This document shows positions 23,786-44,042 of a stretch of DNA of 64,000 nucleotides, one piece after another. The position numbers and the translations under genes are program-made. Source of the DNA: Candidatus Heimdallarchaeum aukensis (lineage in GTDB: Archaea > Asgardarchaeota > Heimdallarchaeia > Heimdallarchaeales > Heimdallarchaeaceae). Each line of letters opens with the position of its first letter. Position 1 is the stretch's first letter. The notes beneath the pieces were generated by a model. The model had not been told where the DNA came from and searched no databases. It worked only from the letters and a program-made list of their open reading frames with translations. Location of the stretch: NCBI GenBank assembly GCA_021513695.1, contig CP084166.1:928001-992000 (forward strand), in the 5' to 3' direction.

Positions 23786-23791
23786 TAATAG

Positions 23792-24553
23792 GTGAGACTA
23801 ATGCTAAAACAGGAAGCTGAAGTAAGAGAAGTTTTAGTTTTCGATATTTGGGGTGATTTTGCTCATTTTAAGAAAAACTATGCTACAACTTCAGCTCTTA
23901 CATACAATTTTCCTCCTCGAAATACTATTGCAGGAATAATTGGAGCAATTTTAGGTTTAAAGAGGGCAGATTTTCCTGAAAAATTGTCTCCTGAAAAGAG
24001 TTACATTGGTGTTTCAATACTCTCTCCAATAATGAAAAAAACTATTACAATGAATCTTATTCACACTAAACCTTCTGAATCACTTATATTCAAAAATAAT
24101 TTTGGTTATTTCAAAAAGCACACACAGATTCCTTTTCAATTTTTATCTAATATCTCATTTAGGGTGTATTTTTCAACTGACGATGAGGAAATGTTTTCAC
24201 AACTATATACATATCTTAAAAACCATAAGTCTCATTATACAGTTTCGTTAGGTTTGAGCAATCTACTTTGTAACTTTAAGTTAATAGGAAAAAAAACAAT
24301 AAGAAAAAAAGAAGTAGCTAACAAAGAAGTAGAGGTTTTAACAGTAATTCCGATGAACAAAGTCAAAGAAGTAAATGTGTTTAAAAATCCTAAAATGAAT
24401 ATCGAGAATTTACCCAGATTTATCGATAGTTCAAGAACAGTTCATGAATACCAGGAAGTTCTATCAAGCATGGATCCAGAAAAACCTCTTTTTGTAGTCC
24501 CTAGAGATACCTTATGGGAGATTGAAAATGACAAATTCATCAGTTTCCTCTGA
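23792..24553 (+). CDS. cas5: Cas5 (Cas5h/Cas5b).
   Basis: ~250 aa. The N-terminal LVFDIWGDFAHFKK..PPRNTIAGIIGAILG is typical of Cas5. It sits between cas7 and cas3. Confidence 0.85.
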   Translation: MRLMLKQEAEVREVLVFDIWGDFAHFKKNYATTSALTYNFPPRNTIAGIIGAILGLKRADFPEKLSPEKSYIGVSILSPIMKKTITMNLIHTKPSESLIFKNNFGYFKKHTQIPFQFLSNISFRVYFSTDDEEMFSQLYTYLKNHKSHYTVSLGLSNLLCNFKLIGKKTIRKKEVANKEVEVLTVIPMNKVKEVNVFKNPKMNIENLPRFIDSSRTVHEYQEVLSSMDPEKPLFVVPRDTLWEIENDKFISFL

Positions 24554-26990
24554 AAATCAGATAAACATTTTTTCTCACCCTAATAAAAATATTTTAGAAC
24601 ATTTAAGTGAGACAGAAAGAGAAATTCTAAATATCCTTGAAAAACTACAGCCCAATTTTTCAATCAAAAAAAACATTATTATCGAAATCGCTAGAATTTT
24701 AGCTTTAACACATGATATTGGAAAATGCACAATCTTTTTTCAAGAATATCTTCATTCAAACGAAGAAAATAACTTCAAAAAATTGGGAGAATATCAAAGT
24801 TCAAAACTTCACCACCATGGACTAATCTCTGCAGTTTTTACCTATTATACACTAAAGAAACTTTTAAATTCAAATAATGAGCAGTTCTATGACCTGAATA
24901 GTGGATATAAAGACCTATTACCTCATATAGGCTTTTTAACAACAAAAAAACATCATGGTAATTTAGGAAATTTTTATGATGAGATTATTATAAACAGAAC
25001 AAGTGAAGAAAAGATTAGACAGCAACTAGAAAATTTCCATCCCCAATTCGAAAATGTTGTCGAATTCATAAGAAATAAAATTAATATAACAATTTCATTT
25101 AATGAATTTTCAGAATCCTTTGGAGATTTAATTGATGAATTAGCTTTCAGTGATGAACTATTATTGAACTATTATGAAAATAGTAGAGATTGTGAACTTT
25201 ATCTATTTACTTTATTTTTACATTCAATCTTAACAGATGCAGATAAAACTTCTGCTATTGGTGTCTCTAAGCCTATTCTTCCATTTATTTCTTCTAACAA
25301 AATTATCAAAAACAGGAAAAAAATAATCCAGAAAAAAGGAAAAAAGACATATTTAGATAACTTAAGAGAGAATATTTACAAAGAAGTAATTGCAAAGATA
25401 GAAAAAACACCTTTAGATAACAAAATATTTACATTAACAGCTCCTACAGGTTCAGGAAAAACTCTCACAGTTTTTGAAGCAGCATTTAGATTGAAAGATA
25501 AAATTTTAAGGAGAACTAATATAGAAATGAAAATTATTTATTGCCTTCCATTTCTCAGCATCATTGATCAAAATGCTCACATTATTAACCAACTGCTAGA
25601 TCCTGACTCAGTTAAGTTTCTTCCTTCAACTCAACTACTAATTCATCATTACTTGGCAGAAGTTCAATACAGCTCTTATGAAGAAGATTATACCTTTGAT
25701 GAAAGTAGATTCCTAATTGAGGATTGGCATTCTTCAGTTATTATTACAACCTTTATTCAGCTTTTTCATAGTATTTTTACCAATAGAAATAGCAAGATAA
25801 GGAAACATCACAATATACAAAATTCTATCATAATACTTGATGAAGTTCAAAACATTCCTCATAAGTATTGGTTATTGATCAGGGAAGTTTTTCAAAGATT
25901 ATCAGAGATCGAGAATGTTTATATCATTTTTACAACAGCCACACAGCCTAAAATTTTTAGTTCAGAAGAGAAAGTTGTTGAATTACTTGAAAATAAGGAA
26001 AAATACTTTGAACAGTTAAGTAGAATTACTTTAGAACCAAAAATTGATAACAATATCACACTCAACGAGTTTATTTTAGAAATTAATGAGAAACTGCAAA
26101 AGAACAGTGACAAGGATATTCTAATTGTTGCGAATACAATCCGAGAAGCTCAAGAGATTTTTGACAGTATTAATTTTAAAAAAGATCATGATAAGTTATT
26201 TTTCCTTTCAAGTCAAATAATCCCTAGAAAGAGGAAAGAAAGAATTGAAGAAATAAAGAGAAAATTAGAAAAAGAAAAAGATAAAAGAGAGAGTAATGAA
26301 AAACGAATTATTTTAGTAACTACCCAATTAATTGAAGCAGGAGTAGATATCGATTTTGATATTGTAATAAGAGATTTAGGACCAATAGATTCTATAAATC
26401 AAGTAGCAGGAAGATGTAACAGAAACGGAGAAGAAGAAAAGGGAAAAACAATTGTTTATTCAGTCATTGACCAAAAAACAAAAAGATTATTTGCTTCATA
26501 CATTTATGACGGATTTATTTTAAGTAAAACGAAGGATGTTCTAAAAAACAAAAGAGTGATAGAAGAACAAGAATTCCTCAAAATCATTGACGATTATTAT
26601 TTAAGCATCGAAAAGACAGGGGACACAATAACCTCCACTAATATACTAGACTCTATCTTTAATTTAGAGTTTGATGAAATAGGTAAATTTAGCCTGATAG
26701 AAGAAAGAGCTGATCAAGTTCCTGTTTTTATTGAGATAGATAAAAAGGCAAAGGAAATTTGGGCAGAATATTTGGAAATATGGAATATTAAAGATTGGAA
26801 GAAAAGAAATGAGAAATTTATAAAAATCAAAAATGATCTCTATAGTAACTTAATTAACGTAGACAAGAAAAAAATCAAAACAATTGAGCAAATAAAGGGT
26901 TATTATTATATCGATTTTCAAAATGCTAGGAACTACTACGACAATGAAAAAGGTTTCATTGGGAAAGAAAAAGATGTTATTTTATTATAA
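24522..26990 (+). CDS. cas3: Cas3 with an N-terminal HD nuclease domain and a DExH helicase.
   Basis: HD motif LTHDIGK. Helicase motifs TAPTGSGKT, ILDEVQ, TATQP and VTTQLIEAGVDIDFD. 822 aa. Confidence 0.9.
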   Translation: MKMTNSSVSSENQINIFSHPNKNILEHLSETEREILNILEKLQPNFSIKKNIIIEIARILALTHDIGKCTIFFQEYLHSNEENNFKKLGEYQSSKLHHHGLISAVFTYYTLKKLLNSNNEQFYDLNSGYKDLLPHIGFLTTKKHHGNLGNFYDEIIINRTSEEKIRQQLENFHPQFENVVEFIRNKINITISFNEFSESFGDLIDELAFSDELLLNYYENSRDCELYLFTLFLHSILTDADKTSAIGVSKPILPFISSNKIIKNRKKIIQKKGKKTYLDNLRENIYKEVIAKIEKTPLDNKIFTLTAPTGSGKTLTVFEAAFRLKDKILRRTNIEMKIIYCLPFLSIIDQNAHIINQLLDPDSVKFLPSTQLLIHHYLAEVQYSSYEEDYTFDESRFLIEDWHSSVIITTFIQLFHSIFTNRNSKIRKHHNIQNSIIILDEVQNIPHKYWLLIREVFQRLSEIENVYIIFTTATQPKIFSSEEKVVELLENKEKYFEQLSRITLEPKIDNNITLNEFILEINEKLQKNSDKDILIVANTIREAQEIFDSINFKKDHDKLFFLSSQIIPRKRKERIEEIKRKLEKEKDKRESNEKRIILVTTQLIEAGVDIDFDIVIRDLGPIDSINQVAGRCNRNGEEEKGKTIVYSVIDQKTKRLFASYIYDGFILSKTKDVLKNKRVIEEQEFLKIIDDYYLSIEKTGDTITSTNILDSIFNLEFDEIGKFSLIEERADQVPVFIEIDKKAKEIWAEYLEIWNIKDWKKRNEKFIKIKNDLYSNLINVDKKKIKTIEQIKGYYYIDFQNARNYYDNEKGFIGKEKDVILL

Positions 26991-27002
26991 CGAAATGATG
27001 GA

Positions 27003-27031
27003 GTTCAAGCTAAACTAAGTAGTATGAAAAT
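27003..27031 (+). repeat. Solitary degenerate CRISPR repeat (26/29 identical: GTTCAAGCTAAACTAAGTAGTATGAAAAT) in the cas3-cas4 intergenic spacer. It is in the same orientation as the cas genes and array 2.
   Basis: Direct comparison with the array repeat GTTTAAGCTGAACTAAGTAGTGTGAAAAT shows 3 mismatches. No second repeat lies nearby. Confidence 0.8.
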
Positions 27032-27073
27032 TAGAGGTAGAAGTAATGGTATTAAATTCTTGGTGAAATTGTA

Positions 27074-27604
27074 ATGGTGGAGTTAAATCATATTAGCATT
27101 AAGAATACTGATTTTGCAGTAACTGGAGTAATGGTTCAATATTTATTTTCATGTAAAAGAGAATTGTGGTTTTTTACCAAAAAAATTGATTTCAACAAAG
27201 AGGATCAGAACATTCAAATTGGCAAAATAATACATGAAACAAGCTATAAACGAAATAAAAAAGAGTTTGACTTAGGTTTTGTAAAATTTGACTTAATTGA
27301 AACAAAAAACAGGATAATAATTTCTGAAATAAAAAAATCTTCAAAACTTTTGGAACCTGCAAAAATGCAACTTTTGTATTATGTTTACATTTTAAGTAAA
27401 ATAACTGAAAAAGAAGTAGAAGGAGAAATTAGAATTCCAAAAGAGAGAAAAAAAGTAAAGATTCAATTGCAAAACGAAGAAGAAAAATTAATTCAAAAAG
27501 CTTTGAGAGAGATTAAAGAAATTTCCTTACTGGAAAGACCTCCCAAAGCAGAAAAAAAATTTTATTGTAAGAATTGCGCTTATTACATTTTTTGCTGGGT
27601 TTGA
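27074..27604 (+). CDS. cas4: Cas4 (RecB-like nuclease with a C-terminal Cys cluster).
   Basis: 176 aa. An N-terminal Cys (FSCKREL), a C-terminal CKNCAYYIFC, and a RecB-like core (IGKIIHE). Confidence 0.85.
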   Translation: MVELNHISIKNTDFAVTGVMVQYLFSCKRELWFFTKKIDFNKEDQNIQIGKIIHETSYKRNKKEFDLGFVKFDLIETKNRIIISEIKKSSKLLEPAKMQLLYYVYILSKITEKEVEGEIRIPKERKKVKIQLQNEEEKLIQKALREIKEISLLERPPKAEKKFYCKNCAYYIFCWV

Positions 27605-28591
27605 GTGAAAAAAATGAAAGATTCTATTTACATTACAAAGGAAGGAGTAATTTACAGAAAAGATAATACTATTGTTTTTCAAAATCAAGAACAAAAGCAT
27701 ACTTTACCTATCGAAGCAGTGAAAGATATATATTGTATTGGCAAAGTAACTATAAGATCTGGAGCAGCTTATCAACTAATGGAAAAAAGGATTCCTGTAC
27801 ATTTTTTCGGAAAATATGGACACTATAGAGGAACATTACAACCAAAACAAGATCTAATCTCTGGAGAAGTAATAGTAAAACAAGTTCAACATTATACTGA
27901 TTACATAAAAAGAATAAAAATTGCAAAAGAGATGTTTAAAGGAATAAAACACAACATTCTCTGGGTTCTAAAATATTACAAATCAAAAAGAGATATAGAA
28001 GATGTAGTTGAAAAAATTGAACATGTTAATATTCAAGAAGAAATATTAAAAATAAATACATTAAGAAGTTTAGAAGGTCAAATATGGGAACTTTTCTATC
28101 AAGCTGCTGATACAATTTGTCCTTCATGGGGTTTTAGAAAAAGGACTAGAAGGCCTCCTTTAGATGAAGGAAATGCACTAATATCTTATGGAAACTCAGT
28201 TCTATATGGAAAAACAATTTCTGAAATATTCAAAACTTATCTTCATCCTGCAATTTCGTTTATACACGAACCAAGTGAAAGAAGGTACTCTTTAGCCTTA
28301 GATCTAGCTGATATTTTCAAACCAGTAATAGTTTTTAGAACAGTCTTCAGGCTTATAAATCAGAAAATAATTTCAAAGAAAGATTTTGAAAAAGAAGTAG
28401 GAGTCCAAATTTCAGAAAAAGGAAAAAAAGTATTTATCACAGAATTAGAAAAAACATTCACAACTACAGTAAGACATCCAAATCTGAAAAGAAATACCTC
28501 ATACCAGTTTTTGATAAGACTTGAAGGACTAAAAATAATGAAACATGTTCTAGGAGATAAAAAATATGAAAGCTTTAAAGCATGGTGGTAG
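27605..28591 (+). CDS. cas1: Cas1 integrase.
   Basis: 328 aa, sharing the N-terminal Cas1 fold signature (IYITKEGVIYRKDNTIVF). It is adjacent to and overlaps cas2. The likely start is the ATG at 27614. Confidence 0.9.
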   Translation: MKKMKDSIYITKEGVIYRKDNTIVFQNQEQKHTLPIEAVKDIYCIGKVTIRSGAAYQLMEKRIPVHFFGKYGHYRGTLQPKQDLISGEVIVKQVQHYTDYIKRIKIAKEMFKGIKHNILWVLKYYKSKRDIEDVVEKIEHVNIQEEILKINTLRSLEGQIWELFYQAADTICPSWGFRKRTRRPPLDEGNALISYGNSVLYGKTISEIFKTYLHPAISFIHEPSERRYSLALDLADIFKPVIVFRTVFRLINQKIISKKDFEKEVGVQISEKGKKVFITELEKTFTTTVRHPNLKRNTSYQFLIRLEGLKIMKHVLGDKKYESFKAWW

Positions 28592-28971: not shown

Positions 28972-31900
28972 GTTTAAGCTGAACTAAGTAGTGTGAAAAT
29001 TTCTTTTGTTCTTTGGAGGAGGACAACCTTCAACGAGTTTAAGCTGAACTAAGTAGTGTGAAAATCAGTCTGGGTATATTTTATGCCCCTCAATATTTTG
29101 AGTTTAAGCTGAACTAAGTAGTGTGAAAATTGCTGGCTGGACTGGGCATAATTTCCAGAAATCTCTGTTTAAGCTGAACTAAGTAGTGTGAAAATAGTAA
29201 AATAGCTTTTATTTATTCCGTAGTAATATATGGTTTAAGCTGAACTAAGTAGTGTGAAAATCGCTATTGTAGTCGAGTTAGAAGATGGAGAGATTGAGTT
29301 TAAGCTGAACTAAGTAGTGTGAAAATAAATATATTGTGATGAATTGGATAAAAGAACTAAAAGTTTAAGCTGAACTAAGTAGTGTGAAAATAAACCAGAA
29401 GGAATGACTTTCATTCCTGCTACAGGTTTAAGCTGAACTAAGTAGTGTGAAAATTAATCAGAATAAAATGCTCATAATCATTGGTATAATAGTTTAAGCT
29501 GAACTAAGTAGTGTGAAAATGCAAAGCAATGAAAGGAGTGTTTTGTCTGGTGAGGTCGTTTAAGCTGAACTAAGTAGTGTGAAAATCAATCAGATTTGAG
29601 GGACAAAATAGTCCCGTTGGGACGTTTAAGCTGAACTAAGTAGTGTGAAAATACTGAAGAACAAGAAAAGAATATAAAAAGAACCAAGGTTTAAGCTGAA
29701 CTAAGTAGTGTGAAAATTAATATATCTATCGACTTGAACAAATTAGTTGAAGAGGGTTTAAGCTGAACTAAGTAGTGTGAAAATGGTAAATCCCCCAACA
29801 ATCCTGAAAGTGTTAAATTTGTTTAAGCTGAACTAAGTAGTGTGAAAATATTGTTCTTTTTTCAAATCATCTATTTTTTTTGCTCGTTTAAGCTGAACTA
29901 AGTAGTGTGAAAATTACAATTGACAGTAGTCACACACAAACCATTTAGGTGTTTAAGCTGAACTAAGTAGTGTGAAAATAAAATTCTTCGTGTGTCATAT
30001 AAAAGGCATCATCAGTTTAAGCTGAACTAAGTAGTGTGAAAATAGATCAGAGAGACTTGGGTAGAGTTAGTGAGATCTATGTTTAAGCTGAACTAAGTAG
30101 TGTGAAAATTACATATTTTTGAATAATTGAGACATGCATATGACGTTTAAGCTGAACTAAGTAGTGTGAAAATACAGCTCTCAACTGATAAGAGCGTTCT
30201 TTTTCATTGTTTAAGCTGAACTAAGTAGTGTGAAAATTTGTCAAAGTGTTTGTATAAGTGTCAATATAATCTGTTTAAGCTGAACTAAGTAGTGTGAAAA
30301 TATGTCTTTAGAGACTTGTTGAAGAGCAGGATTGTCAGGTTTAAGCTGAACTAAGTAGTGTGAAAATCAAGCATTTCTGCGATAACGACACCAGAACCAT
30401 TAAGTTTAAGCTGAACTAAGTAGTGTGAAAATTAAATGTGGTCGTGTATCGTTATATGGTGCTCTGAAATGTTTAAGCTGAACTAAGTAGTGTGAAAATA
30501 TATCTCCAGAGTGCCAAATTTCAACATTTGACACGTTTAAGCTGAACTAAGTAGTGTGAAAATCCAATTAATTAAGCCGCTGTTTCAAAAGGTGGTTCAG
30601 TTTAAGCTGAACTAAGTAGTGTGAAAATTTCGATGGATCCATAAAGGTAAATTAGGATCCCAAAAGTTTAAGCTGAACTAAGTAGTGTGAAAATAAAAAG
30701 CCAAGAGATGGATTGATGAACAAAAAAACCGTTTAAGCTGAACTAAGTAGTGTGAAAATCAGTCTGGATAGAGTTTGTGCCCATTAATATTCTGAATTGT
30801 TTAAGCTGAACTAAGTAGTGTGAAAATAGAGTAGGATTGTCAGATTGATCCATAAGGTATAGAAGTTTAAGCTGAACTAAGTAGTGTGAAAATGGTGACG
30901 CCACAAGCGAGGCATTCCCAAGCTCAATAGTTTAAGCTGAACTAAGTAGTGTGAAAATGGATTAAAAAATATGTCTCCTCTCGCTCGTTACGGGTTTAAG
31001 CTGAACTAAGTAGTGTGAAAATAATATCTTTAGATACCTGTTGAAGAGCGGAGTTGGTTTAAGCTGAACTAAGTAGTGTGAAAATCCAAAATTCTCGACT
31101 GCCTCTAAAGCAAATGAGAAAGTTTAAGCTGAACTAAGTAGTGTGAAAATTTTTTTTTCTGTCTGTTATTTCTTCTACTTCTTCTGTTTAAGCTGAACTA
31201 AGTAGTGTGAAAATTTATGATATGCGAACGTTTGCATGTTTGCGAATACAAGTTTAAGCTGAACTAAGTAGTGTGAAAATAGAAAACGTTTGGCTCGAAT
31301 GGATTGGTTTCTATGTCGTTTAAGCTGAACTAAGTAGTGTGAAAATTTGCTAAACCCGCCGCATAATCTTTTTTCTTTTATTTTGTTTAAGCTGAACTAA
31401 GTAGTGTGAAAATTAACCTGCAGAAATATCTTGTAAAATCTTGAATTCAACCTTGTTTAAGCTGAACTAAGTAGTGTGAAAATTAGTTTTGATTTGTAAA
31501 AGACGGATATCCACTTGTTGTGCTGTTTAAGCTGAACTAAGTAGTGTGAAAATATCAACACGTGGGTTTCTATCCAAATCTAATCCTCTGTTGTTTAAGC
31601 TGAACTAAGTAGTGTGAAAATAGCGATATAAAGAAGTTATCCTTTTCAGTATAATAAGGTTTAAGCTGAACTAAGTAGTGTGAAAATAAATTTCTAAAAA
31701 TATTGAAAGGTCAAAATCAAGATTGTTTAAGCTGAACTAAGTAGTGTGAAAATCTAACATGTGTAAGATTCATTGGGCCAATCCAAATTGTTTAAGCTGA
31801 ACTAAGTAGTGTGAAAATCTAAACACAATTTGCATGATGCCATGCTTGTTTTTTGTTTAAGCTGAACTAAGTAGTGTGAAAATGTTGGTTGTGTATAGTG

Positions 31901-33583
31901 TAAATAGATTTTTCTGATTGGGTTTAAGCTGAACTAAGTAGTGTGAAAATTTCTACTTCAAAGAATGAGCACCAATAGTTAAACCAGTTTAAGCTGAACT
32001 AAGTAGTGTGAAAATGCTTCATCTGCTAAAAGTTGTAGTTGTTCATAAAGGTTTAAGCTGAACTAAGTAGTGTGAAAATTGTGCTACATATATACACACC
32101 TATATCCTGTTTATCGTTTAAGCTGAACTAAGTAGTGTGAAAATATCCTGATAGGTGAGTCCTACAGGAGAAAGAAAAAGTTTAAGCTGAACTAAGTAGT
32201 GTGAAAATATCCTGATAGGTGAGTCCTACAGGAGAAAGAAAAAGTTTAAGCTGAACTAAGTAGTGTGAAAATCCCAATAGCATCCTCTTTTATCTGGGGC
32301 TTGGTTTATGTTTAAGCTGAACTAAGTAGTGTGAAAATCTGTGATTTCTGCGGAAATAAACATGTGACGGAAAGTTTAAGCTGAACTAAGTAGTGTGAAA
32401 ATGCAACTCTTTCCGTCCAGCGCACTAAAGCTGCTTTTGGGTTTAAGCTGAACTAAGTAGTGTGAAAATGTTTTTCATGGTAGCTTGCTACCAAAAATTT
32501 ACTTAAAAGTTTAAGCTGAACTAAGTAGTGTGAAAATGAGACTGTTAATAGCGAAGTCAGATTCCTCAAAAGGTGTTTAAGCTGAACTAAGTAGTGTGAA
32601 AATTTGTCTTTACACAGGGCATTCTCAGTTCTGGAGGAAGTTTAAGCTGAACTAAGTAGTGTGAAAATCACATAAACAAATTAGAAAGCGAAATAACCAC
32701 AGTTGTTTAAGCTGAACTAAGTAGTGTGAAAATCAATATTCTTCATCTTCTTCTAAATCATACAATAGCGTTTAAGCTGAACTAAGTAGTGTGAAAATAG
32801 AAAAGAGGAACCGTTGTTCTTAAAGGTAAAAATCGTTTAAGCTGAACTAAGTAGTGTGAAAATAAAGAGTATTGAACTCCTGGTTCAAAACTGATTTTGC
32901 AGTGTTTAAGCTGAACTAAGTAGTGTGAAAATTAATTGCTTTTTTGTCTGCATGACTTGGTAATTCAAAGTTTAAGCTGAACTAAGTAGTGTGAAAATTT
33001 CAAGGTGAGACCAACGATCCTGGTTACTTCGGTTGTTTAAGCTGAACTAAGTAGTGTGAAAATAATATGTAATTAAATAAGTTTTTATTGTGGTAAAATG
33101 TTTAAGCTGAACTAAGTAGTGTGAAAATACATTAAGAAAACGCTTACCATCTAAAGAAACAATCGTTTAAGCTGAACTAAGTAGTGTGAAAATTCATAAG
33201 TTGACCAATATTCAGAAATTACATAACGTTTAAGCTGAACTAAGTAGTGTGAAAATGAAAGCGTTTAGAATTGGTGGCGGTTCTGGTTGCAGGTTTAAGC
33301 TGAACTAAGTAGTGTGAAAATTACTGGGCAATGGAAAAAAGCTGTTGCCGCATTCAAGTTTAAGCTGAACTAAGTAGTGTGAAAATTAACTCACTCGCTC
33401 ACCCTCAGAGAGAGCCACAAACGTTTAAGCTGAACTAAGTAGTGTGAAAATTAATTTACGTCATGACTATGATGCGACCCCCAACGAGGTTTAAGCTGAA
33501 CTAAGTAGTGTGAAAATATTTGACTACTAGGTTTAGGTTTGAATATGAACCAGAGTTTAAGCTGAACTAAGTAGTGTGAAAAA
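28972..33583 (+). CRISPR. CRISPR array 2: 71 repeats and 70 spacers, of which 69 are unique. The repeat is GTTTAAGCTGAACTAAGTAGTGTGAAAAT. The terminal repeat is degenerate (..GAAAAA).
   Basis: 29-nt repeats with a ~65-bp period. The leader-distal last repeat has one mismatch. One spacer (atcctgataggtgagtcctacaggagaaagaaaaa) is present twice in tandem (32145-32179 and 32209-32243). Confidence 0.97.
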
Positions 33584-34761: not shown

Positions 34762-36246
34762 ATGGTTGATTTTGGTCTTATTGATCTTCAAGAAGCAATG
34801 AATGAAGCTGAGACCATATTAGGTGACAAATATACTTATTTTCAGTCATTAATTACAAAATATTCTGTAAAGCCAAGCAAGCCATTTTGGGATATAATTA
34901 TTTTTCTTACAGGTTTAAAGGTATACAAAGATACTGAACTATTTAACAAATGGATTAATTTTTGGAACAAGTATTCAGTATCAAGAAAATACAAGAACCT
35001 TATTTATCAGCCTTCTGCTTCTTTTTCTCCTTTCTTAACTGAAGAAGAAGCAGAAAAAAAGTTCACTAAACTGCTGAAAATGCTTTATAACCGCGATAGT
35101 GAACTTACCGAAGATCAACTTTGGACTTTATTTTTTTCTCTTTTTTATAAGCTTCGAAATGCAATTAAACCTAAATTCAGTAAGGTTGAATTTAGAGTAT
35201 TTCTAACTATTCTTAGCGAACAAACAACTATTCTTTCTACCCTCAACAAAAGTTTGATGATGGCAAAATCCAATCTTTCTGCATACATAAAAAGAATTAG
35301 AGAGAAAAAAGTTATTTTCGAAGGTTTTTTACTAAACCTAAGAAAATTTAACCTAAGTATTTTCTATTCAAGGATTAAATATCCTTTGTCATGTAATGAA
35401 AAAATTACTAAAATTATTCCTAGAGGAAAATTCTTAAGAAGAGTTTATGAGGGTCATATTGCATGTAATTATACTTTTCTGAGCTATTTAGCACCAAATT
35501 TAGATGAAATTAAAAAAGAATTTCTAAAAAACAAAAAAGAGATTTTGGAAGTTATTCCAAATGCTGAAATAGATTTTTTTAGAAGTGATAGAAATAGTAG
35601 ACTATATTCTTTCAATTACAGTAATTATGATTTCAAAAAGGGAAAATGGAATTTTGATATAGATGACATAAATTATAATTTATTTTGGCTTAATAATACA
35701 AAGAATAGCAAAACAGACAATTTAGTTAAGATAATTGAAAATTTTCCTTCTAACGAAGATTATGAACTAAAATTTGATAAAGAAACACTAGACATCCTAA
35801 GGTTTTTCTACTTAAATCCACAAAAGTCAGTTTCACAGATTATTGAAGAAATGGATGTAAGAGAAAGCAAAATAAGAAAAGCTATCAGTGACTTTGAAGA
35901 AAATCAAATTTTAAGAGCGAGAGTGAACCCTGCACCAGTATTTGGTTTGTCTAACATTATTCTCTATATTAAAGAGAAAAAAGACAAATTGAGAAAAATA
36001 CATGAAGAGCTTTCTTTTTTCCCAGAAGTTTATAGTGAACCTTTAGTTAATATCGAGACACAAGAGGAAGAGCTAATGATTATTGTAAGAGCTCCTGAAG
36101 CAATAACATTTCAAGTTGTAGAAGCTCTTTATCAAAAATATGAAAAAAAGATAGTGGGTTTATTCCTTATTGATCAAATGTACTCAACAAGGCAGGATCT
36201 TCCTCTAGAGAACTTTGATACTTTATTTAAGAGATGGAAAATATAA
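34762..36246 (+). CDS. Tandem Lrp/AsnC-like regulator (494 aa), paralog of 18047..19525.
   Basis: Alignable blocks are shared with the 492-aa protein: WTLFFSLFYKLRNAIKPKFSKVEFRVF.. vs WSLFLRFFFTLRSRIKPSLTKAEFSLL.., and LSFFPEVYSEP vs LSLFPEVYSEP. Confidence 0.6.
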   Translation: MVDFGLIDLQEAMNEAETILGDKYTYFQSLITKYSVKPSKPFWDIIIFLTGLKVYKDTELFNKWINFWNKYSVSRKYKNLIYQPSASFSPFLTEEEAEKKFTKLLKMLYNRDSELTEDQLWTLFFSLFYKLRNAIKPKFSKVEFRVFLTILSEQTTILSTLNKSLMMAKSNLSAYIKRIREKKVIFEGFLLNLRKFNLSIFYSRIKYPLSCNEKITKIIPRGKFLRRVYEGHIACNYTFLSYLAPNLDEIKKEFLKNKKEILEVIPNAEIDFFRSDRNSRLYSFNYSNYDFKKGKWNFDIDDINYNLFWLNNTKNSKTDNLVKIIENFPSNEDYELKFDKETLDILRFFYLNPQKSVSQIIEEMDVRESKIRKAISDFEENQILRARVNPAPVFGLSNIILYIKEKKDKLRKIHEELSFFPEVYSEPLVNIETQEEELMIIVRAPEAITFQVVEALYQKYEKKIVGLFLIDQMYSTRQDLPLENFDTLFKRWKI

Positions 36247-36484
36247 TCCAAAAGTAAGATTATTTTGAACCATTTTTTAGGAATAAGAAAAAATGGTTAT
36301 AGATGTAAAAAAAATCGGTAGATGTATGAAATATACTTTTCACAAGTTTTGTGATGGAAAATATAGGTATCACATCATTTACTTGTAGATCATTTGTCAT
36401 ATTTACTTGGTTCCTAAATTAATAGAGTAAACATTCGTTGTTTTTTTATCCAAAAATTATAATAATGCTTTCTTTATTTTATAA

Positions 36485-37351
36485 GTGAAAAAAATGAGTG
36501 ATGATAATAATTTTTCTTCTGATTTAAATAATGCCGATAGTGATTTTCTTTTTTCTTCCTCTTCTTTTGAGTCAAACCTTATTAATGGTGAAAAGGTCTT
36601 TAACGATTTTCTTATTCCTTATCGAACTATTTCTTTTTTTGGTCTTGTAGTCTTGACTTTATCCTTTCTTTTGCCTTTGATAGTTATTTTAGTTGTTCAG
36701 TTTGGTACTGATTTTTCTAGAGCTGTTAAATACACTATTGATGTCATAATGGGTTTGTGGCTATTTTTCACTTTCTTGTTTTTCTTTTTCATTGGTTCAA
36801 GTAATCAACGACTTATTATTACTAACTTTCGTTTAATTTGCATTAGAGAGTATTTTCCTTTTTTCTTTAAGAAGTTTAGAATTCTCAAGGAATGTTCTAC
36901 TGATATTAATAGTGTTACTCTTGTTGAGCGCAAAAAGTTTTCTCGTCCTGAACCTTTTATGTTTTTCACTGGATTGTTGATGTTTTTTGTTAGTTTATTA
37001 CTTTTTATTTCTATTAAGATTGTTGAGCAGTTCAACATTTCTTCTTTCATTCAATATAAGAAAACCATTCTTATTAGTAGTTCAATACTTTTGATTCTTT
37101 CTTTTATGCTTATTATTTATGCTATATTCTTTTTCTCCAAGAATATTTACAAACTAGCTTTTTCCATTGGTCAAACTTATCCTCTACCGCCTGTTATTGA
37201 CAGATTATTTTCAAGGAGTTTGAAAGCTGGTTATTGGGTAATTTACGGTTGGGAAAAAGATTCAAAAAGGATGTATGAAGAAGCTCCTCAAATACTATTT
37301 TCTCTTAAATTTGATAAGCATCTTCAACAGAATAATTTGAAGGAGCATTAA
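36485..37351 (+). CDS. Phe-rich integral membrane protein (4-6 TM) of unknown function. The real start is probably the ATG at 36497.
   Basis: Hydrophobic segments. GGTGA-like GTGAAAAAAATG context. Confidence 0.5.
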   Translation: MKKMSDDNNFSSDLNNADSDFLFSSSSFESNLINGEKVFNDFLIPYRTISFFGLVVLTLSFLLPLIVILVVQFGTDFSRAVKYTIDVIMGLWLFFTFLFFFFIGSSNQRLIITNFRLICIREYFPFFFKKFRILKECSTDINSVTLVERKKFSRPEPFMFFTGLLMFFVSLLLFISIKIVEQFNISSFIQYKKTILISSSILLILSFMLIIYAIFFFSKNIYKLAFSIGQTYPLPPVIDRLFSRSLKAGYWVIYGWEKDSKRMYEEAPQILFSLKFDKHLQQNNLKEH

Positions 37352-37789
37352 TTTTTTTTATTACTTTCAACAAGTGGGACTTTTTTAACTAACTTACTAG
37401 CATAATAATTTTTTACTAACTTATTTTTCACTTATAATTCTTATTCTTCTCCTTTTTCTTTACTTTTTTCTTTCTTTATCCTTCTTTATTAATTTCTGTT
37501 AGTACCGACAATTCTTTAACCACATTATTAATTTTAAAAAATGGAATATGAATTCTTAAGCTTCCAAAATGGATCTTTATTTAATGAGACTCACTGTTGT
37601 AGAAATTTAATTTAAAACTATGACTTTTGTACAGAAACTTTTTTTACGAAGTTTTGGGTGTACACCTATTGCTAAGTTTTTTCCTGTTTGCTTCTTACTT
37701 TGCTGTTTCTTTGATTGAATTATTCCTATGCTTTTAATTCCTATTGTTAAGGAGTAATAACAGGAGAAGCTCTTGCGTGAGGGAATAAG

Positions 37790-38053
37790 ATGTCACAAGC
37801 AAAATTTCGTATTTATTGGAAGTCCTATTATCCTGAACGCATTACAGAGGAGTACATCAAAGCTGATAATCCTTGTCACGCTTTACTCTTAATTCGTGAC
37901 AAGTTCTTTGCTGAACATTCTGACGATATTTATTGTGCTTATGTATTTAGTCTACAAGTGAGAAAGGAAGGTTGTTGGGCTGATTGGACTTCTGAGAATG
38001 GTTTAGACATTACTACTCTTGCTGAAGAATTAGAGCTATTTACTTACTCTTGA
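37790..38053 (+). CDS. Small hypothetical protein (87 aa) with a codon usage that is atypical for this window (more G/C third positions).
   Basis: An ORF preceded by a ~440-bp non-coding stretch. Confidence 0.35.
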   Translation: MSQAKFRIYWKSYYPERITEEYIKADNPCHALLLIRDKFFAEHSDDIYCAYVFSLQVRKEGCWADWTSENGLDITTLAEELELFTYS

Positions 38054-38198
38054 TCTTGGTTCTTGTGTTGACAAGTAAAATATTCATAATTGTGCTTTCT
38101 ATGATGACTGAATAAAGTCCGATTGATTGAATTCTTCGTTGCTATTAAAGTTCTTTGATTTTGTTTAATTTTCTTTTCTTTCTTTTTTCTTTTATTCT

Positions 38199-39230
38199 TT
38201 ATTTTTCTTTCTTTGCTTCGTCTTTTGCTCTGTTTTTTGTTTTTATTTTATTTGTTCGTTCTGTCTCTATTTCTTTTTCTTCTATTTTTTTACTTTTATC
38301 TAGTATAATTATTATTACTCCTGCTATTATTCCTATTCCTCCCAGAATGTAAGATAGTGTTATTGGTTCTTTTAGTATTATTGCGCCTAGTATTATTGCG
38401 AACACTGGTTCATCTAGTAGTAGTAATGAGCTTTTTGATGACTCTTGATATTTTGCTGAGATCATCAACAGTCCATATGGTATTACGCTTCCTGCTAGTG
38501 CGAATCCTATTCCTATTAGTATTATTTTTGTTTTCATTATATTTTCTATTTCCATTTTTGCTAACTCTTCTGGTAGGGGTAGTATTGAGAACATTATTAG
38601 TAGAGGTAGAGCTATAATTATTGCCCATGATATCACCCAAGCTATTGATAGGGAATAGGGAACGTTTTTTCTTTTTTCTGCGCTTGCTCTTCCTACTAAA
38701 AGGTAGAAAGCGTAGAACAGTCCATTTAGTATTGCTAGAGTTGTTCCAACTATTGATGACATAAATGACTCCCATTTCCACACTTCTGTCAATGTGATTA
38801 ATCCTGCTGTTGCTACTATTATTGCTAGTATTTTGCTTTTTGTTATCCTTTCTTTTAGGAATATCCTTCCCAGTATTAGTGTTATGAACGGGTGTATCTG
38901 TATTAGCAGTGCTGCTTCTCCTGCTGGTGTTCCTACTGCTATTGAACTTAGGTAAACAACTATCATCATTACGAAGATTAAACTTTGTAACAGGTATGTT
39001 TTCTGATTTGTTAGCTTAATCGAGTTCTTTACTTGTTCTTTGTTTTTCTTTAATGTGTAGAAAACTATTATTCCTAACCCAAATATCGAACCGAAGAATA
39101 TTCTTAGCAATGATTGTTCTATACTTGAAACATTCAGATCTCTTAATATTGCTGAGATTACTGGTATTGAACCAAAAAATAGTCCTGCTGTGATTGATGC
39201 TAAATATGAAAAATTAGTTTTTTTATCCAT
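38199..39230 (-). CDS. DMT superfamily (EamA-like) transporter with 10 TM helices and a Lys/Glu-rich C-terminal tail.
   Basis: Two EamA-like halves and a polytopic profile. Confidence 0.7.
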   Translation of the reverse strand: MDKKTNFSYLASITAGLFFGSIPVISAILRDLNVSSIEQSLLRIFFGSIFGLGIIVFYTLKKNKEQVKNSIKLTNQKTYLLQSLIFVMMIVVYLSSIAVGTPAGEAALLIQIHPFITLILGRIFLKERITKSKILAIIVATAGLITLTEVWKWESFMSSIVGTTLAILNGLFYAFYLLVGRASAEKRKNVPYSLSIAWVISWAIIIALPLLIMFSILPLPEELAKMEIENIMKTKIILIGIGFALAGSVIPYGLLMISAKYQESSKSSLLLLDEPVFAIILGAIILKEPITLSYILGGIGIIAGVIIIILDKSKKIEEKEIETERTNKIKTKNRAKDEAKKEK

Positions 39231-39347
39231 TCTGGTTCGGGGTGTTTTTCTTTTTCACATTTATCAATCTTTACTCTTTCTCCATTCAATTTTCTATTAT
39301 TTATTCTTTCTTTTTTTCTCATTCTTTTCTGATTTTTACTATTTTTT

Positions 39348-39396
39348 CTATCAAACTTATCTATCAAACTTTTCTATCAAACTTTTCTATCATTTC
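39348..39396. repeat. Tandem 13-nt repeat (CTATCAAACTTTT x3.5) in the divergent intergenic region between the DMT transporter and the HIT gene.
   Basis: Read directly from the sequence: ctatcaaacttat ctatcaaactttt ctatcaaactttt ctatcatttc. Confidence 0.7.
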
Positions 39397-39445
39397 TTAT
39401 GCAGCTTTTTCATAATTTTCTTAAATTGAAATTTTTCTTTCTCAT

Positions 39446-39904
39446 ATGGACTGCAGTTGGTGCAATTTAGATAGTTTTTCTGACTATTTCATTTACGACA
39501 GTGAATATTTCAGCGTTTATCTTTCTGAAGATCAAAGTCTTTTAGGTAGACTTATCTTGGTTCTTAATCGTCACGCTTCTTCTTTAAGTGATTTGACTCA
39601 TGAAGAAATACATGATTTTCTTTCTAATGTTAAAATCATTGAAAAAACTTTGACTAAAGCCTTTGGTACAACTATGTTTAATTGGAGTTGTTTGATGAAC
39701 AATTCTTTCAAAAAGCAACCTAGTTTTCCTCATGTCCATTGGCATTGTCGTCCTCGTTATGCTCACGATGTTTCTTTTACTGGTTTAGTTTTTTCTGACC
39801 CTGATTTTGCTCATCATTATAATAACAAAAGAAAACTTTTTGTCTCTCCTGAGGTTCGACAATCTATTATTTCTGCCATCCGAGACAATCTCTCTTCTGT
39901 CTAA
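39446..39904 (+). CDS. HIT-family hydrolase.
   Basis: A histidine triad motif (HVHWH) in a HIT-like context near the C-terminal third. It is 152 aa. Confidence 0.65.
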   Translation: MDCSWCNLDSFSDYFIYDSEYFSVYLSEDQSLLGRLILVLNRHASSLSDLTHEEIHDFLSNVKIIEKTLTKAFGTTMFNWSCLMNNSFKKQPSFPHVHWHCRPRYAHDVSFTGLVFSDPDFAHHYNNKRKLFVSPEVRQSIISAIRDNLSSV

Positions 39905-40187
39905 TTTATAGAAATTATTTTTTCTCTTCCTTCTTCTTTCCTTCAGATATGTTTGTACTTTACTTCTACTTTTTTTTGTTTCTTTCTTTCTTCCTTCCAC
40001 TTGTTTAAACATATAACCTTTTCTTATTTTATTTTGTAAGGCATTTTATCATTCTACTTTTTATATTCTAGGCCCACCTAATCCATTTGCACTTTTTTTC
40101 GAAACGCTTTTAAACATGCTCAAATATTTTTCATTGATTGAAGAATCTTTCTTCGGTCATAATAATAACAAATTAGAAGGAATTATT

Positions 40188-42281
40188 ATGAAAAAAAGAA
40201 TGTTAATAACAAGCATTTTCATTTTTGCCTTTTTAGTAGCAGTTATTCCTTTAACTGCAAATGCTAAAGTCCTTTCTACTAGAGCTACAAAGGATTTGGG
40301 CGGTGGAGATGCTTATAACGCATATAGTGCATCTGATTATGCAACCCTTATTAGTACACCTATTTCGGGTTACGGAGATATTTACTATTCCAGTGATCAG
40401 TATGATCAATACAAAGTAGCAGTAAGTTCAGGAGATCAAGTAACGATTGAGTTTACTGCCCCTAGTGGAGCAACAGGAATTGATCTTCCTGTTTATGACA
40501 CTGACAAGTCTCGAATACTCATTCGTTACAACATCCAGACTTTCTCCGAGACTGTTACTGCTTCTGGCAACGGTTACATTTACTTTACTATAGATGCAGA
40601 CACTTATGATGATAGAGGTACTTATTATCTCAGTGTTTCTAAATCTGGAGCAGTTGACACTACTCCACCTACTGTAAGTATTACTGACCCTGCTGATGGA
40701 GCAACTGTTTATTCTGCAGATGTCACTGTTTCATGGACTGGTTCTGACAATGTCGGCATAGACTATTACGAGGTCAGAATTGATGGTGGTTCATGGATCA
40801 ATGTCGGAACATCTACAAGCTACACCTTTACTGGTTTAGCTGACGGTAGTCATACTGTAGATGTTAACGCTTATGACGCTGCAGGAAATGTTGGTTCTGA
40901 CAGTGTAACTTTCACTGTTGATACCAGTGCTCCTCCTACTGAGTATACTTTCACTGGTTCACTTAGTGCTGGACAGGACAGTACTCAACACACCTTTAAC
41001 GTTCCTTCCAACACCATTAAGATCGAGGTTCAGCTTCAAATGCCCAGTGGTGCAGATTACGATTTAAGCCTTTGGGACTCTAATGGAGCTCGAACTGGTG
41101 GTTGGACTTCAACTGATAGTAGTACTAAAACAGATATTGCCAACAGTGATTATTCTGGTTATTCTGCTGATCCTGAGTGGGTTACTGTTGATCCTCCTGC
41201 TGTTTTTGGTACCTGGAAGACTGGTTGTTATGCTTACAGTGGTTCTGGTACTTACACCATCACTGTTACTCTAACGCTCAGTGGTCCAGATACTACTGCA
41301 CCTACTGTTACTATAACTGACCCAACAGATGGTTCTACAGTTAATTCTGCTGATGTTACTGTTTCATGGACTGGTTCTGACGATGTTGGTATTGACCACT
41401 ATGAAGTCAGAATCGATGGTGGTTCATGGATCAATGTTGGAACATCTACAAGCTACACCTTTACTGGTTTAGCTGACGGCAGTCACACTGTAGATGTTAA
41501 TGCCTATGATGCTGCAGGTAACGTTGGTTCTGACAGTGTGACTTTCACTGTTGATACCACTACCAATCCTGTTGAAAAATGGGCAGTTATTGTTGGTATT
41601 AGTGACTACAAAGCTATTAGTGATCTTTCTTACTGTGATGAGGATGCAACTGACTGGTATTATCAACTTACCAGCAGTCAAATGAGTTATGACCATATCA
41701 CTGTTTTAGGAGATGGATATTCTTCTAACTATCCTCAATGGGATGGCTATGCTACAGAGTACAATGTTAAACAAGCTTTGAACAACATGGTTAATTCTGC
41801 TGACTCTAATGACATTATAGCTTTCATCAGTTCTGGTCATGGTTCGGGTAATGGTGCAGGTTCTTCATACTTGTGTATGTGGGACTGCAGTTCAGGAGAA
41901 AACGGAGAAGATGGAAATCTCTATGACACTGAATTAGCAGCAATTCTTGACGGAGCTGTTGCTGACAGGATTTTCGTCTTCTTAGACCATTGTTACAGTG
42001 GTGGTTTTGGAGACGACCTCATGAATATGCCTAACAAAGACCGTGTTTACCTAACAACAACCTGTACAGAAAATGGTTATGGTTATGATGACTCCACTCA
42101 TCAAAATGGTGCTTGGACTTACTACTTCCTAGATTACTCTTGGCAGCAACATTTCGGTGGTGCAGCTAATGTTGCTATGGAAGACATCTTCGACTATGCT
42201 TTAGCTGCTTATCCATACAGTGGTGGAGACACTCCTCAAGAGTTCGATGGAAACACAGGTGCGTACTTCTACCTGGCATAA
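40188..42281 (+). CDS. Secreted multidomain protein. It has a signal peptide, two near-identical Ig-like domains, a pre-peptidase-C-terminal-like domain and a C-terminal caspase-like (peptidase C14/metacaspase-like) domain.
   Basis: Signal peptide MKKRMLITSIFIFAFLVAVIPLTANA. A caspase His/Cys dyad context (SSGHGSG .. LDHCYSGGFG). The ORF-track start at 40116 is probably too far upstream. Confidence 0.7.
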   Translation: MKKRMLITSIFIFAFLVAVIPLTANAKVLSTRATKDLGGGDAYNAYSASDYATLISTPISGYGDIYYSSDQYDQYKVAVSSGDQVTIEFTAPSGATGIDLPVYDTDKSRILIRYNIQTFSETVTASGNGYIYFTIDADTYDDRGTYYLSVSKSGAVDTTPPTVSITDPADGATVYSADVTVSWTGSDNVGIDYYEVRIDGGSWINVGTSTSYTFTGLADGSHTVDVNAYDAAGNVGSDSVTFTVDTSAPPTEYTFTGSLSAGQDSTQHTFNVPSNTIKIEVQLQMPSGADYDLSLWDSNGARTGGWTSTDSSTKTDIANSDYSGYSADPEWVTVDPPAVFGTWKTGCYAYSGSGTYTITVTLTLSGPDTTAPTVTITDPTDGSTVNSADVTVSWTGSDDVGIDHYEVRIDGGSWINVGTSTSYTFTGLADGSHTVDVNAYDAAGNVGSDSVTFTVDTTTNPVEKWAVIVGISDYKAISDLSYCDEDATDWYYQLTSSQMSYDHITVLGDGYSSNYPQWDGYATEYNVKQALNNMVNSADSNDIIAFISSGHGSGNGAGSSYLCMWDCSSGENGEDGNLYDTELAAILDGAVADRIFVFLDHCYSGGFGDDLMNMPNKDRVYLTTTCTENGYGYDDSTHQNGAWTYYFLDYSWQQHFGGAANVAMEDIFDYALAAYPYSGGDTPQEFDGNTGAYFYLA
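40653..41566 (+). repeat. Intragenic tandem duplication. A ~270-bp domain-coding unit occurs twice (40653-40925 and 41293-41566) at ~90% nucleotide identity.
   Basis: The protein block TTPPTVSITDPADGATVYSADVTVSWTGSDNVGIDYYEVRIDGGSWINVGTSTSYTFTGLADGSHTVDVNAYDAAGNVGSDSVTFTVDT is repeated as TTAPTVTITDPTDGSTVNSADVTVSWTGSDDVGIDHYEVRIDGGSWINVGTSTSYTFTGLADGSHTVDVNAYDAAGNVGSDSVTFTVDT. Confidence 0.9.
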
Positions 42282-42486
42282 CCTTTTTCTTTTTTTCTTT
42301 TTTCAGAGATTCCTTCGAAAATCTCTTTTTTTTCCTTTAATTTTAAGTAAATCTACATGTTTTCAAAAAATATGGATAAAGATTACCAGAAACACATTAT
42401 TGTTTTAGTTTCAAACAGATCAGAATAATTCATTTATTAAAAAAAAGAATAAATAAAGAATCTATTTCTTATTTTCTTTATTTAGT

Positions 42487-42900
42487 TTATTTTTCTGTTA
42501 TCCACATTTTATTGAAAGCTTTTCTTGTTGTTAGAATACTTGCTCCTATCCACGTTCTGTGCATTCTATCTGTGGTTGCTGTAATTCTTACAACTGCATT
42601 TTTTGGTGCAACTTTTTTCAATTCATAATCTATTCTTTCTCTCATTCCAGGTATCATTGAACTTCCTCCACATAAGATAACATTAGGCCACAACAGTTAT
42701 TCTATTTCTTTACATTTTTGTATAGTTTAAACTATTTCTTCAACTAAGCCTTTTTTCTTTTCCTTTTCGCTTTCTTCAAACAATATTTCTGGTGCAAGAA
42801 ACTTTTCTTTGCTAATTGTATACACAAAGAAAGGAGAATTTTTGTGAAAAGGTTTTTGGAAAAGCAGTTTATCAATACAAGGAACCAAGTTTAGGAGTAG
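42487..42900 (-). pseudogene. Actin-family (eukaryote-like actin/Lokiactin-like) C-terminal remnant with two in-frame TAA stops. The 5' two-thirds of the gene are absent.
   Basis: The minus-strand frame reads ..VYTISKEKFLAPEILFEESEKEKKKGLVEEIV*TIQKCKEIE*LLWPNVILCGGSSMIPGMRERIDYELKKVAPKNAVVRITATTDRMHRTWIGASILTTRKAFNKMWITEK. This aligns with the actin C-terminus (..[72 protein letters not shown]). Confidence 0.7.
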
Positions 42901-42930
42901 TTAAATGAAAAAAAAAGAAAAAGGAACACA

Positions 42931-43152
42931 CTATTCTTGTTTAACTGTAGATATCTTGAAAACTGTATATAATCCACAGTAACCTGTAATCCCAGTAATC
43001 AACGAGATTAATCCCACGATCAACAATATAATTAACAAGACCAAGTTTATTGGGGAGCTAAGTACAAAGTAGAAAACTATTGCCAAAACAGTTAGAATTG
43101 TTCCTAAAGCTACTCTTATTATTCTATCAGTTTTTCCTTCATTTACTTGCAT
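42931..43152 (-). CDS. Small two-TM membrane protein (YgaP/DUF2892-like).
   Basis: 73 aa with RIIRVALGTIL..GLISLITGITGYCGLYTVF. Confidence 0.5.
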   Translation of the reverse strand: MQVNEGKTDRIIRVALGTILTVLAIVFYFVLSSPINLVLLIILLIVGLISLITGITGYCGLYTVFKISTVKQE

Positions 43153-43278
43153 AGTGATTTAAAGTTCTTCAAAAGAGTATAAATATGTTAGTTATTTACA
43201 AAATCCTCGAATTAGCAGTAAAACAAATATAGATGCAAAAATCTGCCTGTTTTTAAGATATCTTAAATGTTCTGAGAG

Positions 43279-44042
43279 GGTAGTGTCTAGTTTTCTTCCG
43301 ACAAAAATATTTGTGGGGACTCTAATAGTAAGATATGAACATTCAAAAACTATCTACTCTTTTTAAGAGATGCAGAGTCCCCAAAAAGATAATAATAAAA
43401 GTTTTTTATGAATATATTGGTTCAAAGAATGGTTTGAGGACAGTAGCATGGAAGAATGGTTTAACACACCAAACATTATGGTATTGGGTAAAGAAGTTCA
43501 GGCTCTTTAGGAAAAGTTTACATAGAATTGTAGCAGAGAGAGGGGGAATACCAGAGATTATAGTAGTTGATGAGACGGAGATTAAGACCTCTCAAGGCTC
43601 AATGTATATGTGGTTCGCGTTAGATCCTTACAACAAGACTTTACTGGGTTTTAGTATTACTAAAGGACGGAGTAATCTTGAATGTTTACTAACTTTCCGT
43701 TATTGGCTCAAATGTTGGGGTTTTAAGCCCCGTATTGTCGTTACAGATGCAGGGGTATGGTATCCTGCCTTACTTCGTCTAGGTATCAAAATCTCCGTTA
43801 TCAAAGGTGGTTTACGCTCCTATATTGAACGTTTTAATGCTACTCTTAAGAGTTATCGTTGGTTTCATTCTATTCTCCACTGCACTTGTCCTATCCGTGC
43901 CGTCTATGGCTCTACTCATCTTTCTGGTTTTCTTACTCTCTTTATGCTCCATTATAATTTCGTTCGTCCTCATCAGAGCTTGGGACATCCTCCCCTTAGT
44001 TCCTTTTTACCTAGGAGGTGGTATAAAAACTAGACACTACCA
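43279..44042 (+). mobile_element. IS6-family-like insertion sequence (764 bp) with 16-bp perfect terminal inverted repeats GGTAGTGTCTAGTTTT. It carries a single DDE transposase.
   Basis: IRL GGTAGTGTCTAGTTTT lies at 43279-43294. IRR AAAACTAGACACTACC at 44027-44042 is its exact reverse complement. The size, single ORF and GG-start IRs fit IS6. No clear target-site duplication is visible. Confidence 0.75.
43335..44033 (+). CDS. DDE transposase (IS6-like), 232 aa.
   Basis: An N-terminal HTH (LTHQTLWYWVKKF). The catalytic D..D..E context is VVDETEI, VVTDAG and ERFNATLK. A C-terminal YNFVRPHQSLG motif. Its stop codon lies inside the IRR. Confidence 0.75.
   Translation: MNIQKLSTLFKRCRVPKKIIIKVFYEYIGSKNGLRTVAWKNGLTHQTLWYWVKKFRLFRKSLHRIVAERGGIPEIIVVDETEIKTSQGSMYMWFALDPYNKTLLGFSITKGRSNLECLLTFRYWLKCWGFKPRIVVTDAGVWYPALLRLGIKISVIKGGLRSYIERFNATLKSYRWFHSILHCTCPIRAVYGSTHLSGFLTLFMLHYNFVRPHQSLGHPPLSSFLPRRWYKN

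Follow-up and report, generated by a model that had tools for sequence, protein, structure and literature searches.

A probable pseudogene relic of a divergent actin-related gene in Candidatus Heimdallarchaeum aukensis

Introduction

What is the end of a eukaryote-type actin, lacking its beginning, doing on the minus strand of the Candidatus Heimdallarchaeum aukensis chromosome? The stretch of DNA analyzed here (the window) comprises 64,000 nt of CP084166.1 (928,001–992,000), and coordinates below are window positions unless another contig is named. The original prediction took a minus-strand frame in it for the decayed remainder of a Lokiactin-like gene, either a pseudogenized extra copy or, less likely, the product of an assembly problem. 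Wu et al. 2022 (PMC8813620) described the genome of H. aukensis and reported that actin, profilin, and gelsolin are universal across the known Asgard phyla, which complete genomes confirm; the supplementary files of that paper list no locus tags for actin. Rodrigues-Oliveira et al. 2022 (PMC9834061) reported Lokiactin in all Asgard lineages, together with ARP-like paralogs that have histories of loss and gain. We therefore asked of this locus whether the frame is a functional gene, what kind of actin it came from, and how it came to be truncated. The evidence makes it very probable that H. aukensis has lost a divergent ARP-like actin paralog, of which 42487–42822 (minus strand) preserves a drifting, non-functional 3' relic.

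Results

The frame matches the C-terminal third of actin

The minus strand at about 42484–42900 translates to a sequence ending in FVYTISKEKFLAPEILFEESEKEKKKGLVEEIV, a stop, TIQKCKEIE, a second stop, LLWPNVILCGGSSMIPGMRERIDYELKKVAPKNAVVRITATTDRMHRTWIGASILTTRKAFNKMWITEK, and a third stop. Within it, a coding frame of 111 codons (42490–42822, minus strand), which we call the relic, corresponds to about the C-terminal third of an actin-family protein. It aligns with beta-actin residues ~250–360, a stretch that takes in subdomain 3, the end of subdomain 4, and a portion of subdomain 1. Pfam PF00022 (Actin) matches the relic with E = 1.3e-25 and 90.3 bits (cut-off 27), over only positions 270–394 of the 410-position profile. 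The top PDB matches are all Arp1 or actin: Arp1 at 3e-21, the Asgard "HC1 actin" (9wc4) at 3e-20, and many actins at ~1e-18, with 75–78 bits for actins including HC1 actin. Searching the whole 64-kb window with human beta-actin (ACTB) by tblastn gave the relic as the single match (residues 247–360, 36% identity, E = 4e-17). A profile made from the closest full-length relatives placed the bounds of the relic at exactly 42490–42822 (118.7 bits, HMM positions 266–379 of 384), and the same profile detected no actin homology in the other two minus-strand frames of 42400–43200. These results bear out the predicted homology, with its extent corrected from residues ~235–375 to ~250–360. The frame contains no frameshift, and its GG(S/T) and WIGAS motifs remain visible.

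The N-terminal part is indeed absent, as had been predicted, and the loss amounts to ~250–262 codons rather than ~230. By tblastn, no homology to actin residues 1–246 was found anywhere in the 64-kb window. Between the start of actin homology and the stop codon of the YgaP-like gene upstream lies a 108-nt spacer (42823–42930, minus strand), in which a T-rich run comes first and none of the frames shows homology to actin. At the other end, the relic also stops ~15 residues short of the C-terminus of eukaryotic actin. The N-terminal two-thirds of actin hold both phosphate-binding loops and subdomains 1–2, and because these are gone, the product of the relic cannot be an actin. A complete ATPase fold of the actin/HSP70/hexokinase type is not encoded, the N-terminal part being absent and the remainder interrupted by two in-frame stops.

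Both of these predicted TAA codons are present, the first at 42727–42729 (minus strand, relic codon 32) and the second at 42697–42699 (minus strand, relic codon 42). Their supposed placement at conserved Tyr/Asp positions did not hold, since both align with variable positions: the first with Asn in beta-actin, Phe in Arp1, and Lys in the relative P0160 (described below), and the second with Lys/Arg in actins and Ser in P0160. If the first codon had encoded Lys, a single step (AAA to TAA) would be needed. The parent gene probably ended at the terminal TAA (42487–42489, minus strand) as well, since two other relatives, P0013 and P0158, stop after that same residue (HWITKK followed by a stop).

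Downstream of the second TAA, the relic forms a TTG-initiated ORF of 68 aa (42487–42693, minus strand). The closed 3.08-Mb genome of H. aukensis encodes the very same protein as UJG41618.1 (K9W45_03925, annotated "hypothetical protein"), to which UniRef gives the automatic name "Actin, cytoplasmic 2." This exact match agrees with the prediction that the actin flags an Asgard archaeon, the lineage being Heimdallarchaeial and not Loki.

Strains share the truncation and accumulate protein-changing differences

Two other assemblies contain the locus at ~98% DNA identity, on contigs of 10.4 kb (L001, from GCA_054381415.1) and 2.3 kb (L002, from GCA_054383975.1). Both have the same neighbors, the same 5' truncation, and the first TAA, which is thus carried by all three alleles. 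At the second position, the window and L002 have TAA and L001 has TCA (Ser). TCA is probably ancestral because P0160 also has Ser there, and TAA would then be a recent nonsense mutation in an already dead gene.

Among the three alleles, the 336-nt relic has eight variable sites, all eight of which change an amino acid or a stop and none of which is synonymous; the 108-nt spacer has four. Two of the changes fall in the conserved CGGSSM motif, turning LCGGSSM into LYGGSSM and LCGGSLM. Taking 80% of sites as non-synonymous and counting eight substitutions in three alleles, the probability that all eight are non-synonymous is P = 0.17 under neutrality, P = 5e-5 at omega = 0.1, and P about 0.008 at omega of at least 0.3. 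For the flanking genes, dN/dS between the two Heimdallarchaeum species is 0.10–0.12. The pattern fits a relic that is drifting without purifying selection. Eight substitutions make a small sample, in which neutrality is not rejected and weak selection (omega of at least 0.3) is only mildly disfavored.

The relic lies in a segment that H. endolithica lacks

The convergent downstream neighbor of the relic is a gene for a 721-aa protein (40116–42281, plus strand) that combines Ig-like (Big_7) repeats with a conserved C-terminal region, which we used as a synteny anchor to find the corresponding locus in the closed genome of Ca. H. endolithica (CP084167.1; L003). The immediate upstream neighbor of the relic, which shares its strand, is an intact gene for a YgaP-like transmembrane protein of 73 aa (42931–43152, minus strand; Pfam PF11127, E = 2.9e-19), which is conserved in L001, L002, and H. 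endolithica. Window 37599–42456 corresponds to 7528–12338 of the H. endolithica locus, and window 42909–43203 to 12321–12615, both at 87–89% identity. Absent from H. endolithica is a segment of ~470 bp (42459–42930) consisting of the relic, the 108-nt spacer, and ~28 nt past the relic stop, and tblastn found no actin in the syntenic locus. Nor did any of the other 79 of the 80 loci with a homolog of the 721-aa protein have an actin within 10 kb. Because H. endolithica does without the segment at the same site, the segment is dispensable.

A short, imperfect direct repeat bounds the segment, with its left copy, CTATTTCTT, at 42462–42470 (plus strand) and its right copy, CTATTCTT, at 42931–42938 (plus strand), overlapping the stop codon of the YgaP-like gene. 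Only a single copy occurs in H. endolithica. By eye, the segment ends show only a T-rich, low-complexity resemblance and no terminal inverted repeats. That H. endolithica lives without the segment is consistent with a working actin elsewhere, and the literature statement that actin is universal in Asgard phyla is likewise consistent with the working actin of H. aukensis being a different gene elsewhere in its genome. The same truncation and TAA in two other assemblies, together with the absence of the segment from the sister species, support the prediction of a pseudogenized extra actin copy. The relic thus combines a disrupted frame, apparently relaxed selection, and absence from H. endolithica, as expected of a pseudogene.

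The 721-aa protein itself is of a secreted or surface type, with an internal duplication of ~270 nt at ~88% identity (Big_7) and a weak caspase-like (Peptidase_C14) match on record for its C-terminal region. Its homologs, 40–94% identical, are widespread in Asgard and Bathyarchaeia MAGs, and H. endolithica has several paralogs.

The parent was probably an ARP-like paralog and not a Lokiactin

The original prediction called the relic Lokiactin-like. Over this segment, it is 36% identical to both ACTB and HC1 actin and 38–43% identical to partial actins of Wukong, Hod, Kari, Sigyn, and Loki, whereas conventional Asgard actins share 65–87% identity with one another and 54–59% with human beta-actin. 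The comparison set of conventional Asgard actins consisted of HC1 actin and the partial proteins (<200 aa) found with its segment; among the matches listed in that search, all were shorter than 200 aa and none came from Heimdallarchaeum. Modest decay cannot explain a drop from ~65–87% to ~40% identity, so the relic is not merely a decayed Lokiactin. The prediction of a eukaryote-like rather than an MreB- or crenactin-type protein fared better: alongside the Arp1 and actin structures at the top of the PDB matches, NCBIfam gave no crenactin, MreB, or ParM match at E ≤ 0.01, and only weak matches to "syringactin" (51 bits, cut-off 300) and BeeR (15.7 bits, cut-off 530).

Close relatives of the relic are scarce. 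A HMMER search of 1.84 billion cluster representatives with the 68-aa ORF returned nothing above 48% identity beyond its own cluster, and a word-indexed search of 5.8 billion clusters with the 113-aa relic returned its own cluster only. Because the collection, about 15 billion proteins in all, holds the annotated ORF of this very genome and yet contains nothing above ~48% identity, a recent source paralog can be discounted. A metagenome scan with the stops replaced by K and S was swamped by the low-complexity pattern EKEKKKGL of the query and gave, among the matches listed, actin-like sequences of 31–35% identity on ~1.3-kb contigs. The nearest sequence over 113 residues is P0160 (385 aa, from a Heimdallarchaeaceae MAG) at 45% identity, followed by P0013 and P0158 (379 aa; P0158 is on contig JAHLWR010000011 of Heimdallarchaeota isolate 18H4_34) at 44% and P0021 at 41%. 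P0013 is itself divergent, with 31% identity to beta-actin.

In a neighbor-joining tree of 111 columns, the relic was sister to P0013, P0158, and P0160 in 109 of 300 bootstraps (36%), and it joined no sampled ARP-like group with support. Subfamily HMMs of P0013/P0160 scored 102.6–118.7 bits on the relic, and a profile of other divergent Asgard-like actins scored 117.5 against 102.6, so that HMM scores did not tell the actin subgroups apart. From these comparisons we conclude that the parent would have been an ARP-like, fast-evolving paralog in the eukaryote-type actin family and not the conserved Lokiactin, with a tentative tie to the P0013/P0160 group. The 45% identity argues that the parent formed a lineage separate from that of P0160. 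It is conceivable, at somewhat less than even chances, that the relic is the only trace of an otherwise unsampled actin-related lineage specific to Heimdallarchaeum, caught during its loss.

The intact relatives (379–385 aa) are encoded in a conserved operon, directly after the gene for a 243–246-aa protein that they overlap by 8–11 nt (loci L083, 561–2433; L085, 654–2532; L086, 8733–11140; L087, 5162–7569). The partner protein has a basic N-terminus (GPGRPRKYA followed by ERKRAYRERKKERL), coiled-coil character, and no Pfam family, and L085 has a second actin-like gene just upstream. By analogy, the arrangement recalls an actin-like ATPase paired with a DNA-binding adaptor. The partner has no tblastn match in the window, where the gene upstream of the relic is the YgaP-like one.

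Error, a functional short ORF, and the neighboring insertion sequence

An insertion sequence (IS) of 763 bp (43279–44041, plus strand) lies upstream, with perfect 16-nt terminal inverted repeats GGTAGTGTCTAGTTTT and a gene for a 232-aa DDE transposase (43335–44033, plus strand). In NCBIfam, the transposase comes closest to the IS6 family (47 bits; cut-off, 125), and Pfam gives only weak rve/rve_3 matches. IS6 elements are ~0.7–0.9 kb long, with terminal inverted repeats and an 8-bp target duplication. No target-site duplication was found around this IS, the flanks being TCTGAGAG and AAGAAAGC. The IS is present in L002 and absent from L001. Beyond it lies a gene for an M14 peptidase in the window and one for a 1004-aa FG-GAP-like protein in L001; H. 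endolithica has neither. Such a picture suggests IS-mediated rearrangement at a strain-variable hotspot.

The original prediction noted an IS6-like element ~380 bp upstream, and this IS could in principle have cut the actin gene short by inserting into it or by causing a deletion: it is 457 bp from the start of actin homology, and the missing target-site duplication suggests that it took part in a rearrangement. However, the intact, conserved YgaP-like gene and its flanks (42931–43278) stand between the IS and the relic, L001 has an identical truncated relic with no IS at the site, and H. endolithica keeps the YgaP-like gene and the same downstream neighbor with neither IS nor relic. Given the intervening gene and the IS-free relic of L001, we conclude that the IS did not truncate the actin gene, and we rate such a role as very improbable. 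An intact, possibly essential actin gene that merely appears broken through sequencing or assembly error, or through stop-codon recoding, has a negligible probability. Its appeal is that the frame is otherwise open and that both interruptions are TAA, but a closed genome and two MAG contigs of other assemblies all show the same 5' truncation and share the first TAA. These two independent strain-level assemblies exclude the assembly problem that the original prediction had kept as its less likely alternative. Moreover, no frame contains N-terminal actin sequence, the segment is missing from the closed H. endolithica genome, and the sequence is far too divergent for a conserved Lokiactin. TAA is also the commonest genuine stop in the window, terminating 26 of 41 long ORFs, and recoding is not credible for that reason. 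A working short gene is very unlikely as well. The 68-aa ORF (78 aa in L001) might encode a free actin subdomain-3/1 fragment, for example a decoy or cap for filaments or actin-binding proteins; NCBI annotation calls the ORF in three assemblies, the frame has no frameshift, and the GG(S/T) and WIGAS motifs are recognizable. Yet all eight polymorphisms change amino acids or stops, the conserved CGGSSM included, and the strains differ in ORF length solely through the polymorphic stop. No Shine-Dalgarno-like GGAGG/GGTGA motif closely precedes the TTG start, homologous mini-proteins are confined to a single 90% cluster, and the sister species lacks the whole segment. Slimmer still is the prospect that the 68–78-aa ORF is translated and that a dying actin paralog has thereby been exapted into a new regulatory micro-protein, one that interferes with or caps the cell's own actin filaments or actin-binding proteins.

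In-situ decay or insertion of a fragment

A non-functional relic could have arisen by decay in place or by insertion of a fragment, and we slightly favor decay in place, at a little better than even chances, because deletional decay is common for prokaryotic pseudogenes, whose usual fate it is, and no insertion mechanism is evident; no outgroup that would fix the polarity keeps this synteny. Under decay in place, a full-length paralog would once have stood downstream of the YgaP-like gene, its 5' two-thirds would have been deleted in the aukensis lineage, and deletion between short direct repeats CTATT(T)CTT would have removed it wholly in endolithica. Alternatively, the ~470-bp piece was never a working gene here and entered the intergenic spacer in the aukensis lineage as a fragment from an unsampled donor, either through illegitimate recombination or as what was left of a larger insertion that has since been deleted. 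This is possible, if the less likely of the two courses. It takes one event instead of two, and it accommodates the lack of the segment in H. endolithica and at all other loci with this neighbor, a bounding direct repeat that could be a target duplication, and the lack of any protein more than ~48% identical in a collection that includes the proteome of this genome. The different gene context of the intact relatives and the strain-variable hotspot with an IS just upstream also speak for insertion. Against it, no mechanism is known by which a gene fragment lacking a promoter would enter and leave a 9-nt duplication, neither terminal inverted repeats nor a mobile-element gene is present in the segment, and the G+C content of the segment, 29.6%, is host-like (window, 31.8%). 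In AT-rich DNA, slippage deletion in H. endolithica would leave such short direct repeats just as well, and they may be coincidental. Timing bears on both courses. In a neutral AT-biased simulation, two stops in 111 codons fit best at 0.02–0.10 substitutions per site, and the split of the two species corresponds to dS ~0.34, or ~0.17 per lineage, at which P(≤2 stops) = 0.34. That one or two stops without a frameshift correspond to ~0.02–0.10 substitutions per site, below the ~0.17 since the split, favors insertion, and inactivation is probably, on this weak indication, no older than the aukensis/endolithica split.

Other features of the window

The window also holds a type I-B-like CRISPR-Cas locus with Cas6, Cas8b/TM1802, Cas7, Cas5, Cas3, Cas4, and Cas1 (10406–16355, 20023–28591, 29358–33517), flanked by two very large arrays in opposite orientation that share a ~29-nt repeat, ATTTTCACACTACTTAGTTCAGCTTAAAC. 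Units recur every ~65 bp, numbering roughly 90 in one array and 64 in the other, and duplicated spacers produce higher-order periods of 130–330 bp. The locus is presumably one of the systems C1–C7 of Wu et al. 2022 (PMC8813620). No Pfam match was found at E ≤ 1e-4 for a 501-aa ORF beside the first array (16570–18075) or at E ≤ 0.001 for ORFs of 494 and 288 aa beside the second (34762–37351). A 13-nt tandem repeat, TTTTCTATCAAAC, occurs in 3.8 copies at 39344–39392 between the EamA-like and HIT genes, and Rfam and tRNA scans of the window gave no matches.

Discussion

As a taxonomic flag, a eukaryote-type actin in a prokaryote-style genome pointed correctly to an Asgard archaeon. The relic offers a concrete, datable case of the loss of an actin-related paralog, a kind of loss inferred from the patchy distributions of Asgard ARPs. 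In practical terms, UJG41618.1 is a pseudogene fragment and should not enter actin counts in censuses of eukaryotic signature proteins. This is otherwise an ordinary pseudogene that matters little by itself; the uncharacterized Heimdallarchaeial actin-like gene in a conserved operon may merit a separate look.

Like the ARP-like paralogs of Asgard archaea (PMC9834061), the relic belongs to the PF00022 fold family, shows ARP-scale divergence from actin, and has Arp1 as its best solved-structure match; it differs from them in keeping only the C-terminal third, interrupted by stops. With P0160 and P0013/P0158 it shares the WIGASIL and LW.N motifs, and with P0013/P0158 the same end residue, whereas those relatives are intact and sit in a different gene context. 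Lokiactin, conventional Asgard actins, and eukaryotic actin are of the same family and alignable over residues ~250–360, but the relic is far less identical to them than they are among themselves and lacks ~15 C-terminal residues. Truncation, nonsense codons (one of them polymorphic), apparently neutral substitutions, and absence from a sister species are all shared with other prokaryotic pseudogene relics, from which this one differs only in its parent, a eukaryotic signature protein paralog without a close relative in the databases.
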